DNA of 29,183 nucleotides from an uncultured Candidatus Saccharibacteria bacterium (lineage in GTDB: Bacteria > Patescibacteriota > Minisyncoccia > Phycocordibacterales > PALSA-1337). The DNA is taken from the NCBI GenBank assembly GCA_964633555.1, contig CAZWGR010000001.1, positions 1 through 29,183 of the forward strand, in the 5' to 3' direction. This document shows, piece after piece, positions 16,179 through 26,510 of this stretch (position 1 is the first letter of the stretch; each line of letters opens with the position of its first letter). The position numbers and the translations under genes were made by a program. Under the pieces are notes generated by a model that was not told the DNA's origin, did not search any database, and saw only the letters and a list, made by a program, of their open reading frames with translations.

Positions 16179-16251
16179 GCCACCTTAGCTCAGTTGGTAG
16201 AGCAACTGTTTTGTAAACAGTAGGTCCCCGGTTCAAGCCCGGGAGGTGGCT
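16179..16251 (+). tRNA. tRNA-Thr (anticodon UGU), CCA not encoded
   Basis: Cloverleaf: acceptor GCCACCT/AGGTGGC, D arm GCTC/GAGC, anticodon arm ACTGT-TTTGTAA-ACAGT, T arm CCCGG-TTCAAGC-CCGGG, discriminator T. Confidence 0.97.
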
Positions 16252-23741: not shown

Positions 23742-25490
23742 CTAAGATCGCTGCTTAATTTCAGTCTCAAGTCGAGCAATTGCTTCTTCGGCAATAATTT
23801 GGCCGATCTGACCATGATCACGACTTTCAAGAGTAATCTTGCCAGCCTCAATATCTTTATCACCAATGATGATTGTATAAGGAGCAAAGGCATCTTTAGC
23901 TTTGCGAACCTTCTTACCAAAGCCGTCATTGGTTGTATCAATACGAGCACGAATACCTCGAGAGCGAAGATCCTTGTAGATTTTCTGTGCTGTTTCAAAA
24001 GCTGTTTCTTTTACAGGTACTACATACACCTGTTCAGGAGCAAGCCAAAGAGGGAATTTACCTGCATAGTGCTCAATAAGGAAGCCAATGAATCGTTCGT
24101 GGGTAGAAAGTGGAGCTCGATGAATACAGAGCGGAGTCTTTTTTGTTCCATCTTTATCAACATAAGTAAGGCCAAAGCGCTCTGGAACCGCAAAGTCTAC
24201 TTGGTTTGTAGCAAGGGTAAACTCACGACCAATTGCTGACCAAATCTGAACGTCAATCTTTGGTCCATAGAATGCACCCTCATCTTCAGCTTCAAAGAAG
24301 GGCACTTTAAGGTCTTGAAGACTTTTGCGAACCATGTCTTCAGTCTTAACCCAGAGAGCTTCATTGTCGATATACTTCTTGCCAAGCTTTTCTTTTGAGT
24401 GCTTTGAAAGGCGCATCTTAAAGCTGTTAATTCCAAAGATCTTGAAATAGTACAAATACATTTCAATAACTTTTTTGAATTCATCGAAGAATTGTTCTTC
24501 GGTACAGTAAATGTGAGCATCATTCATTTGCAAAGAACGTACGCGCATGAGACCAAAGAGTTCACCCGATTTCTCATGTCGATAACATGTGCCGTATTCA
24601 GCTAAGCGAAGAGGCATTTCTTTATAGCTACGAGGTCGCGCATCAAAGATTTTATGATGATGCGGACAGTTCATTGCTTTCAGATAGTATTTACCGCCTT
24701 CGTATTCCATAGGAGGGAACATAGAATCCTCATAATAAGGAAGATGGCCTGATGTTAGATAGAGCTTGTCTTTTGCAAGGTGAGGTGTGTGAACGCGCTC
24801 GTACTCATAAGCAAATTCAGTTTCTTTTGCGAGCTTTTCAAGTTCTTCAATAATTGCTCCGCCATTTGGAAGCCATAGTGGTAAACCAGCACCAACATCT
24901 TCATTGAATTCAAAGATGTCGAGTTCTTTTCCGAGTTTTCGATGATCGCGCTTCTCGGCCTCTTTTTGCTGTAATTCGTATGCTTCAAGCTCTTCTTTGC
25001 TTGAGAAAGCGAGGCCGTATATACGAGTGAGCATTTTATTTTTTTCATCTCCTCGCCAATATGCGCCTGCAATGCGGTAAAGTTTAAGACCCTTCATGTC
25101 GACATTCTTCATAGAATCGACATGTCCGCCACGGCAAAGGTCAGTAAAGTCTCCCGAAGTGTAGAGGGTGATTTTTTCTCCTTTAGCTGCTATTTCATTA
25201 ATGAGTTCTATTTTGTAAGGATTATCTTTGAAGAATTCTAGAGCTTCTTCTCTCGATACTTCTTTTGCTGTAAAACCATCCCAGCTCTTTGAAATTTCGC
25301 GCATCTTTTGTTCGATTTTTCCAAGATCCTTTTCATTGATTGGTTCTGCAAAATCAAAGTCGTAGTAAAAGCCGTTATCAATAGCAGGGCCAATAGTTAC
25401 TTTTGTAGAAGGATAGATTTTAAGAACTGCGCTTGCGAGTAAGTGAGCAAGAGAGTGTCGAATAAGAGCTAATTGTTCGTTGTTGTTCAT
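23742..25490 (-). CDS. thrS: Threonyl-tRNA synthetase (no N-terminal TGS domain; N2 editing domain retained)
   Basis: RHSLAHLL, DLCRGGH, GAYWRG, RDHRKLG, MNCPHH, YRHEKSGELFGLMRVR, AFYGPKID, IHRA. Confidence 0.98.
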   Translation of the reverse strand: MNNNEQLALIRHSLAHLLASAVLKIYPSTKVTIGPAIDNGFYYDFDFAEPINEKDLGKIEQKMREISKSWDGFTAKEVSREEALEFFKDNPYKIELINEIAAKGEKITLYTSGDFTDLCRGGHVDSMKNVDMKGLKLYRIAGAYWRGDEKNKMLTRIYGLAFSSKEELEAYELQQKEAEKRDHRKLGKELDIFEFNEDVGAGLPLWLPNGGAIIEELEKLAKETEFAYEYERVHTPHLAKDKLYLTSGHLPYYEDSMFPPMEYEGGKYYLKAMNCPHHHKIFDARPRSYKEMPLRLAEYGTCYRHEKSGELFGLMRVRSLQMNDAHIYCTEEQFFDEFKKVIEMYLYYFKIFGINSFKMRLSKHSKEKLGKKYIDNEALWVKTEDMVRKSLQDLKVPFFEAEDEGAFYGPKIDVQIWSAIGREFTLATNQVDFAVPERFGLTYVDKDGTKKTPLCIHRAPLSTHERFIGFLIEHYAGKFPLWLAPEQVYVVPVKETAFETAQKIYKDLRSRGIRARIDTTNDGFGKKVRKAKDAFAPYTIIIGDKDIEAGKITLESRDHGQIGQIIAEEAIARLETEIKQRS

Positions 25491-25502
25491 GTATTTAAGT
25501 TA

Positions 25503-25553
25503 ATAATAAAACGCCCGAGCCTATACGCGAATAATCGTGTATATGCTCGGGCG
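25503..25553 (-). terminator. T-box attenuator terminator
   Basis: 9-bp GC-rich basal stem plus 9-bp upper stem (one mismatch), followed by UUUUAUUAUU. Confidence 0.9.
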
Positions 25554-25683
25554 CAAGACTCCGGTCTTCCGCGGTTCCACCGGGCTTCGCTGCGTATATC
25601 TTATATATTACAGCAATCTTTGTAATAGATTAGGCTTTCGCTTGGTTACCCAACTGCGATTGGTAGTCGCAACAATCTCTATT
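25503..25683 (-). promoter_or_regulatory. T-box riboswitch (transcriptional) in the thrS leader
   Basis: T-box bulge UGGAACC (25579-25573) flanked by CGG/CCG and GCG/CGC helices with an AAGAC-CGGA-GUCUU cap. Its 3' strand (25553-25545) is also the 5' arm of a terminator CGCCCGAGC...GCUCGGGCG-UUUU. Candidate specifier ACC at 25664-25662. Confidence 0.9.
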
Positions 25684-25689
25684 TCTTGC

Positions 25690-25718
25690 ATTGTAGCGCA
25701 AGCCCTGTTTTGTTGCAA
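25690..25718 (-). promoter_or_regulatory. Putative sigma70 promoter of the thrS leader
   Basis: TTGCAA-N17-TACAAT on the minus strand; predicted TSS near 25683. Confidence 0.6.
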
Positions 25719-25859: not shown

Positions 25860-26510
25860 ATGTCACAAAATTCCCTTCAAAATAGTGCAAAAGAACATGT
25901 GCCACAGTACATCCATGATCTCAAAAGGGAATTAATTGACCACACTGAAAATCACGTACCGCAGTACATTCACGACCTCAAGAAGGAGCTAGTTGATCGT
26001 ATTGAAAATCACGTACCGCAGTACATCCACGACCTCAAGAAGGAGCTAGTTGATCGTATTGAAAATCATGTACCACAGTACATCCATGACCTCAAAAAGG
26101 AATTGAAAGCACATACAGACACCTCAGTAAATGCTCTTGCAGAACTTGTAGCTAAAAACATGTTCACCAAAGATGATGCAAAGAATTTGGCCGCTAAGGT
26201 AGATTTAAAGTTGCTTGCAATTAAAAAAGATCTCGAAAAGTTTGCAACAAAGAAAGATCTTGAAAGATTTGCTACCAAGAAGGATCTTGAGCGTTTTGCC
26301 ACAAAGGAGGATCTTAAGTTGTGTGCAACCAAGGAAGACCTTAAGCAATTCGCAACTAAGGAGGATCTTAAGCAATGTGCAACAAAAGATGATATTAAAA
26401 ATCTACCCACTCGAGCAGAACTTGCTGTTCAAACAGATTTTCTCGTAAAAATGTGGCAATCACACGAGGGTCGCATCGGTCACTTAGAGAGGGTTGTGGT
26501 TGAGAAATAA
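25860..26510 (+). CDS. Hypothetical repeat-rich coiled-coil protein (4 x 19-aa repeat plus 10 x 9-aa ATKxD nonads)
   Basis: 216-aa ORF; synonymous divergence among the repeats points to selection on the protein. Confidence 0.85.
   Translation: MSQNSLQNSAKEHVPQYIHDLKRELIDHTENHVPQYIHDLKKELVDRIENHVPQYIHDLKKELVDRIENHVPQYIHDLKKELKAHTDTSVNALAELVAKNMFTKDDAKNLAAKVDLKLLAIKKDLEKFATKKDLERFATKKDLERFATKEDLKLCATKEDLKQFATKEDLKQCATKDDIKNLPTRAELAVQTDFLVKMWQSHEGRIGHLERVVVEK
25890..26117 (+). repeat. Four tandem 57-nt coding repeats (ENHVPQYIHDLKKELVDRI)
   Basis: Units start at 25890, 25947, 26004 and 26061; units 2 and 3 are identical at 56/57 nt. Confidence 0.95.
26160..26429 (+). repeat. Ten tandem 27-nt coding repeats (consensus FATKEDLKx)
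   Basis: MFTKDDAKN, LAAKVDLKL, LAIKKDLEK, FATKKDLER x2, FATKEDLKL, CATKEDLKQ, FATKEDLKQ, CATKDDIKN, LPTRAELAV. Confidence 0.92.

Follow-up and report, generated by a model that had tools for sequence, protein, structure and literature searches.

The thrS gene of this patescibacterial genome is preceded by a leader that very probably works as a T-box attenuator of transcription, with uncharged tRNA-Thr as the likely ligand if it behaves like T-boxes of known mechanism. The leader joins a recognizable T-box discriminator and an overlapping intrinsic terminator to a decoding half of a noncanonical kind, a small junction that presents a threonine codon in the terminal loop of a 6-bp hairpin. It lies in the window, the whole stretch of 29,183 nucleotides that was analyzed, and is read from the minus strand (Table 1).

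An earlier reading of the same DNA, made from the letters only (the sequence-only reading), had proposed a T-box controlling thrS in a probable CPR/Patescibacteria genome. Both proposals held. The T-box bulge, a covarying A1 helix, the terminator, the Thr codon, a matching tRNA, and Stem III are all present, and the element is conserved in relatives. The genome is 0.65 Mb (65 contigs), and its nearest named relatives are metagenome-assembled genomes (MAGs) labeled Candidatus Paceibacterota or "Patescibacteria group." The sequence-only reading had placed the element at 25503-25590, which covers the discriminator and terminator half but leaves out the specifier half; the full element runs from 25682 to 25502. 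It also missed the specifier hairpin, the noncanonical decoding domain, and the failure of the Rfam model RF00230 at this site.

Table 1. Features of the thrS leader and its surroundings (coordinates of the window)
Feature	Position	Strand	Sequence, detail, or basis
Promoter-like site	25690-25718	-	TTGCAA 25718-25713, 17-nt spacer, TACAAT 25695-25690
Whole T-box leader	25682-25502	-	Sequence, fold, family conservation
P1, 5' strand	25678-25682	-	AUAGA; pairs with UCUAU 25629-25625
Junction strand GAUUG	25673-25677	-	RAUYG consensus in family
Specifier hairpin P2	25654-25672	-	UUGCGA/UCGCAG 6-bp stem, 7-nt loop CUACCAA 25666-25660; conservation, covariation
Thr codon ACC	25664-25662	-	In P2 loop, followed by purine A25661
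Variable hairpin P3	25653-25642	-	UUGG-GUAA-CCAA; fold
Variable hairpin P4	25641-25634	-	GC-GAAA-GC; fold
Junction strand CUAA	25633-25630	-	Conserved (CYAA in family)
P1, 3' strand	25629-25625	-	UCUAU; pairs with AUAGA
Linker with purine run, Stem III, and GAA	25586-25624	-	Purine run ACAAAGAUU; sequence and family motif
Stem III	25614-25610 / 25593-25589	-	GCUGU/GCAGC; sequence
GAA 3' of Stem III	25588-25586	-	Sequence
Antiterminator	25545-25585	-	Sequence, RNAfold, covariation
Helix A1	25585-25580 / 25550-25545	-	GCCCGG/CCGAGC, one C.A mismatch; sequence
T-box bulge	25579-25573	-	UGGAACC; sequence
Helix A2	25572-25570 / 25553-25551	-	GCG/CGC; sequence
Hairpin capping A2	25568-25555	-	AAGAC/CGGA/GUCUU; sequence
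Intrinsic terminator and U tract	25502-25554	-	Stem 25554-25511, U tract 25511-25502
thrS (threonyl-tRNA synthetase, 582 aa), regulated gene	23742-25490	-	Pfam tRNA-synt_2b, HGTP_anticodon, tRNA_SAD

The locus, the terminator switch, and the matching tRNA

The leader sits in a gap of 369 nt between thrS, whose ATG is at position 25490, and a divergent open reading frame (ORF) on the plus strand (25860-26510). Because the gene upstream of the leader is divergent, the terminator serves no other gene. In the whole genome we found one T-box-like site, that of the thrS leader. The divergent ORF encodes 216 aa and has only subthreshold Pfam matches (DUF1816, 26.3 bits against a cut-off of 27); its start contains two near-repeats of a unit of ~30 nt, at about 25905-26035. 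The sequencing runs that contain the leader DNA were wastewater and freshwater metagenomes. Three wastewater runs labeled "RNA" also contain it, and these look like DNA, present as short, fragmentary contigs. One wastewater run (X19) holds a related strain with a 3-nt insertion (TTA) at 25479, just inside the thrS start, alongside many synonymous-looking differences.

The TACAAT hexamer of the promoter-like site ends 7 nt ahead of P1, the outermost helix of the leader. The same arrangement recurs in 21 of 26 homologous leaders, where a -10-like hexamer ends 6 to 8 nt before P1, mostly with a TTGACA-like -35 hexamer. Since promoter-like boxes adjoin P1 across the family, the RNA probably begins at P1, about 7 nt past TACAAT. 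A permissive alignment to RF00230 placed Stem I farther upstream, in what is promoter DNA; we rejected that placement because the promoter-like boxes occupy this position family-wide.

The discriminator half follows the T-box pattern closely. Known T-boxes carry the motif RRRxG-Stem III-AA (PMC7583486), and at 25620-25586 of the leader a purine-flanked Stem III reads AAAGAUU-[GCUGU...GCAGC]-GAA. The 5' purine run is AAGAU here rather than AAGxG. Most of the 26 leaders have an AAGxG-like run ahead of Stem III, and AA stands immediately 5' of A1 in 25 of them; Stem III itself is absent from a few relatives (leaders L038 and L047). The antiterminator that the sequence-only reading had drawn, CGG-UGGAACC-GCG paired with CGC-CCG around an AAGAC/GUCUU hairpin, was confirmed base for base. 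Its UGGAACC bulge between A1 and A2 is invariant (26/26 leaders). Across the same leaders, pairing amounts to 94% in A1 and 86% in A2, and A1 covaries, with changes on both sides in five of its six pairs. For 25545-25590, the fold of lowest energy in RNAfold was the bulged antiterminator, at -14.6 kcal/mol, a value no better than that of shuffled sequences.

The competing fold is much stronger. The 3' strand of A2 and A1 is reused, as GCGCCCGAGC, for the 5' arm of an intrinsic terminator (25554-25511) of -30.7 kcal/mol (z = -7.8; 0/200 shuffles as good), and the stem runs into the U tract UUUUAUUAUU (25511-25502). The antiterminator (-14.6 kcal/mol) and the terminator (-30.7 kcal/mol) are thus mutually exclusive through their shared strand, and the earlier reading had described this sharing. 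That reading had put the terminator 17 to 20 nt before the ATG, which is close to the 21 nt that we count from the end of the stem. Of the 26 leaders, 24 or 25 have a comparable terminator that overlaps the antiterminator and runs into a U tract, L073 being an unclear exception, and in nearly all 26 an antiterminator of -8 to -15 kcal/mol stands against a much stronger overlapping terminator. A survey of homologous thrS leaders had been suggested as a check, and it bore the proposal out: the antiterminator/terminator switch is kept, with covariation in A1.

The bulge and the codon both match one tRNA. A tRNA-Thr(UGU) gene with discriminator U (U73) lies in the window at 16179-16251. The sequence-only reading was correct about this discriminator and about the complementarity of UGGA and UCCA, but the tRNA in the window is not the isoacceptor that reads ACC. 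That one is tRNA-Thr(GGU), encoded on another contig and also carrying discriminator U. Its anticodon pairs with ACC, its 3' end UCCA is complementary to the bulge UGGA, and the variable N of the UGGN motif, here A, is complementary to its U73. The tRNA-Thr(GGU) of five further T-box-bearing relatives likewise has U73. In one relative with a thrS T-box (G039), the tRNA-Thr(GGU) gene (L153:1277-1542; G039:C2:27240-27505, minus strand) is interrupted by ~190 nt directly after the anticodon. Rfam searches of this interrupted gene returned no intron family at E <= 0.01, and ARAGORN made no call there.

At the base of A2, canonical T-boxes have a conserved G.U wobble, described as the principal means by which the aminoacyl group is sensed sterically (PMC7583486), whereas the thrS leader has a Watson-Crick pair, G25572-C25551. 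Among 25 scorable leaders, this basal pair is G-C in 17, G.U in 4, and A.C in 4.

Detection, distribution, and covariation of the leader

RF00230 had been proposed as a check of the assignment, and it failed in that role: the leader scored 10.8 bits against a gathering cut-off of 93, and at gathering thresholds Rfam identified only tRNA in the window. The 3' half of the permissive alignment does match Stem III, AA, A1, the bulge, and A2. Two homologous leaders scored 39 and 33 bits. We then took 151 genomes as an even sample of the order. RF00230 had subthreshold matches in 52 of them and none at the cut-off (best score, 60.8 bits), so that annotation at the Rfam threshold misses T-boxes across a bacterial order. 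The 12-nt core GGTGGNACCRCG is not significant by itself, as 0.24 matches are expected in the window with one mismatch allowed, and the case therefore rests on conservation.

For this purpose, thrS loci were fetched from 60 relatives, and 30 loci were examined. Eight of the 30 have the same core and switch upstream of the gene, each with a CUACCAA-type hairpin, and the P2 stems of these eight leaders differ by compensating changes. A covariance model built from five leaders (R1) recovered three held-out leaders at 72, 50, and 37 bits. Applied to the 151 genomes, R1 found a site in 21 of them, never more than one per genome. Leaving aside the site in the window's genome, 19 of the other 20 are directly upstream of thrS, and the last is upstream of an aspS-like gene. 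With the window's own genome counted, thrS is preceded by a T-box in 20 of the 151 genomes, and about 17 of these 20 show the minimal hairpin design. The distribution is patchy, also within the family.

The minimal thrS design is rare in the phylum outside the order. Among about 145 genomes of the class we found one real case (L134), and a further set of about 145 drawn from elsewhere in the phylum gave none; named genome records added two Komeilibacteria and one unclassified MAG. The R1 matches L010, L133, and L135 were discarded as spurious, as they lack the T-box core or the specifier hairpin. Three other thrS leaders (L049, L050, and L051, from genomes G125, G182, and G113) have a normal discriminator in which CGUCC gives a G.U pair at the base of A2. 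These three have no recognizable GAUUG/CUACCAA module or minimal hairpin.

Covariation was assessed on 26 distinct leaders. In this alignment, which was fitted to R1 and anchored by invariant blocks, 92.4% of the pair cells hold standard pairs, compared with 36 to 42% when the 3' partners are slid by 1 to 3 columns. Changes on both sides were seen in 17 of the 21 pairs, and four helices show strong covariation. None of 500 shuffles reached the observed covariation score (0/500). As a cross-check, the 5' strands were set against the 3' strands of other sequences, which gave clearly fewer pairs.

A small decoding domain

The decoding module takes up 58 nt (25682-25625). All five pairs of P1 vary on both sides among the 26 leaders, and the 5' strand pairs with its own partner at a mean of 4.5 of 5 positions, versus 3.3 of 5 with the partners of other sequences. 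In the P2 stem, all six pairs covary and 96.8% of the cells are paired. The P2 loop holds an invariant ACC with a purine next to it in every one of the 26 thrS leaders. The strand between P1 and P2 reads GAUUG in 20 leaders, AAUUG in 3, GAUCG or AAUCG in 2, and only AAU in 1; GAUUG and CUAA are kept across families and also in another order and in Komeilibacteria. The stretch between P2 and CUAA is looser. Relatives carry zero to two hairpins there (none in genus g19, leaders L026 and L048), and for this reason P3 and P4 are optional and the four-way junction at 25682-25625 is one form of a smaller core. The invariant core consists of P1, RAUYG, a 6-bp hairpin with a 7-nt loop, and CYAA.

For the single sequence, RNAfold prefers another register of P1, AGAUUG paired with UAAUCU. 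We rejected it as the conserved helix for two reasons: covariation is seen in the outer pairs of P1 (A-U to G-C to C-G), and this register would create A.C mismatches in leaders with AAUUG or UCC. The family covariation supports the AUAGA/UCUAU register, under which GAUUG facing CUAA would form a conserved non-Watson-Crick module. In L048 these positions hold ordinary pairs, AAU with AUU, which fits antiparallel, stacked GAUUG and CUAA strands. We also considered a K-turn at GAUUG/CUAA, and the module does not fit that motif.

On inspection of its sequence, the thrS leader has no long Stem I, interdigitated T-loop motif (IDTM), K-turn, Stem II S-turn, or IIA/B pseudoknot. The conserved distal pair AGAGA/UGxRA was not found in it, nor was a GA/GA K-turn flanking P2 or P1, and the region after P2 is variable. 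The GAUUG/CUAA module beside P1 is the only candidate that we see for a replacement of these absent elements.

By analogy with the known T-box mechanism, transcription would start ~7 nt after TACAAT, at P1, and the first ~58 nt would fold into the small junction, with ACC exposed in the 7-nt loop of P2. This loop would pair with the anticodon loop of tRNA-Thr(GGU). If the bound tRNA is uncharged, its 3' end UCCA would pair with the bulge UGGA and stack on A1. This pairing would hold the weak antiterminator in place, allowing RNA polymerase to read into thrS. A tRNA charged with threonine would leave the antiterminator unstabilized, and the stronger terminator (25554-25511) with its U tract would then stop transcription. 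Binding of the tRNA, sensing of its charging state, and readthrough are thus predicted to follow the established scheme.

The reduced decoding half could also be taken as a sign of decay, in which case the leader would be a constitutive or otherwise controlled attenuator whose 5' domain no longer recruits tRNA effectively, and leaky termination or some other factor would set the expression of thrS. The absence of the IDTM, the K-turn, and Stem II would agree with this, as would a basal A2 pair that is G-C instead of the sensor G.U and the loss of the leader from many relatives. We nevertheless consider decay improbable. The codon and its purine have stayed invariant (26/26), P2 covaries at six of six pairs, the two junction strands have been retained as far as another order and Komeilibacteria, and UGGA remains matched to U73. 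A decoding domain that had lost its function would not be expected to be under such selection.

Comparison with known T-boxes and significance

The thrS leader shares its whole discriminator (purine run, Stem III, AA, A1, UGGN-ACC, and A2) with canonical T-boxes (RF00230; Bacillus subtilis thrS, tyrS, and glyQS). In both, an intrinsic terminator overlaps the antiterminator, a purine follows the specifier codon, N of the bulge is complementary to the discriminator base of the tRNA, and the target is an aminoacyl-tRNA synthetase (aaRS) gene. The two differ in the decoding half. Canonical T-boxes have a long Stem I with an AG bulge and distal loop (IDTM) for the tRNA elbow, and a K-turn, all of which the thrS leader lacks. 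They present the codon in an internal specifier loop with an S-turn, whereas the thrS leader does so in a terminal 7-nt loop. Transcriptional T-boxes generally require a long Stem I with the IDTM (PMC7583486). The thrS leader does not belong to this long-Stem I class (class I): its Stem I amounts to a hairpin of 6 bp with the specifier loop at its tip, and the promoter-like boxes abut P1.

Ultrashort Stem I elements are known from translational T-boxes, in which the K-turn and Stem II are essential (PMC7583486). The leaders of Actinobacterial ileS genes (Sherwood et al. 2015; Nocardia and Mycobacterium) resemble the thrS leader in that Stem I is very short, the IDTM is absent, and the specifier lies at or close to the apical loop (PMC7583486), and in both cases recognition would go through the anticodon and the NCCA end. 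The ileS leaders keep the essential K-turn, an S-turn in Stem II, and the IIA/B pseudoknot, whereas the thrS leader has none of these, ends in a terminator, and carries the P1-GAUUG...CUAA-P1' junction. It likewise has no helix that would sequester a Shine-Dalgarno (SD) sequence; its expression platform consists of the terminator and U tract. One might still suppose that the thrS leader acts on translation as in Actinobacteria, given that the ultrashort Stem I T-boxes described so far do so (PMC7583486). This is very unlikely, as in nearly all 26 leaders the competing helix is long and GC-rich and runs straight into a U tract, and it lies 21 to about 170 nt before the ATG and covers no ribosome-binding site.

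The threonyl-tRNA synthetase (ThrRS) of E. coli binds its own thrS leader as a tRNA mimic and autoregulates the gene, and P2, with its 7-nt loop, is the size of an anticodon arm, but a protein operator of this kind has next to no credibility here because the loop carries the codon ACC and not an anticodon (GGU, UGU, or CGU), and the 3' half, with its terminator, is unmistakably the discriminator of a T-box.

The order also contains aspS-type leaders (L136, L138, L141, L143, L145, and L146), which lie upstream of an aspS-like class II D/K/N synthetase gene and are another instance of an ultrashort Stem I combined with a terminator. Like the thrS leader, they are of the transcriptional type (terminator plus U tract), and they show their codon (GAC) in the terminal loop of a short hairpin. 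That hairpin has a 5-bp stem and a 6-nt loop, CUGACA (GAC, Asp), and the bulge is UGGC. RF00230 scores them at 41 to 61 bits, again below the cut-off. The aspS-type leaders differ in that they keep a textbook K-turn (GC-AUU-GA...GA-GC) and Stem II- and IIA/B-like sequence, which the thrS leader does not have. One genome (G099) carries a minimal thrS leader together with a K-turn-type leader. Because the other T-boxes of the order keep the K-turn and both types occur in G099, the minimal design is a property of the thrS leader and not a general trait of the lineage. Further T-box-like leaders (L137, L144, L147, and L142; 38 to 58 bits), with UGGU or UGGC bulges, precede genes for small GCS2/amidoligase-like proteins (Pfam GCS2, 25.6 bits; Amidoligase_2, weak) and a NUDIX gene.

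We lean toward placing the minimal thrS leaders in an architectural class of their own among T-boxes, one whose decoding domain spans ~45 to 58 nt, is made of P1, GAUUG/CUAA, and the codon hairpin, and works cotranscriptionally through two contacts. Such a class would touch the tRNA only at the anticodon and at its NCCA end. It would not recognize the elbow, would have neither a K-turn nor the purine string of Stem II, and in most members would lack the G.U pair that serves as sensor. Elements now held to be necessary for transcriptional T-boxes would then be dispensable, and the GAUUG/CUAA module would be a new means of stabilizing the codon-anticodon helix.

In the literature outside subscription journals, we found no paper that links T-boxes with Patescibacteria, CPR, Parcubacteria, or Saccharibacteria, and none that describes a minimal thrS T-box variant. 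The T-box database TBDB was built from Rfam-type models and an Actinobacteria-only class II model.

T-boxes are a model system for RNA-RNA recognition between structured RNAs. According to reviews, the double T-loop platform of a long Stem I is needed to catch the tRNA elbow quickly during transcription (PMC7583486). The thrS leader, which couples a T-box with a ~50-nt decoding domain to a terminator, would be a conserved natural counterexample on which the rules for Stem I can be tested, and its very small size may suit it as a scaffold for structural studies and for engineering sensors of tRNA. For the organisms themselves, the leader suggests that control of an aaRS gene by tRNA charging persists in some ultra-small CPR genomes.
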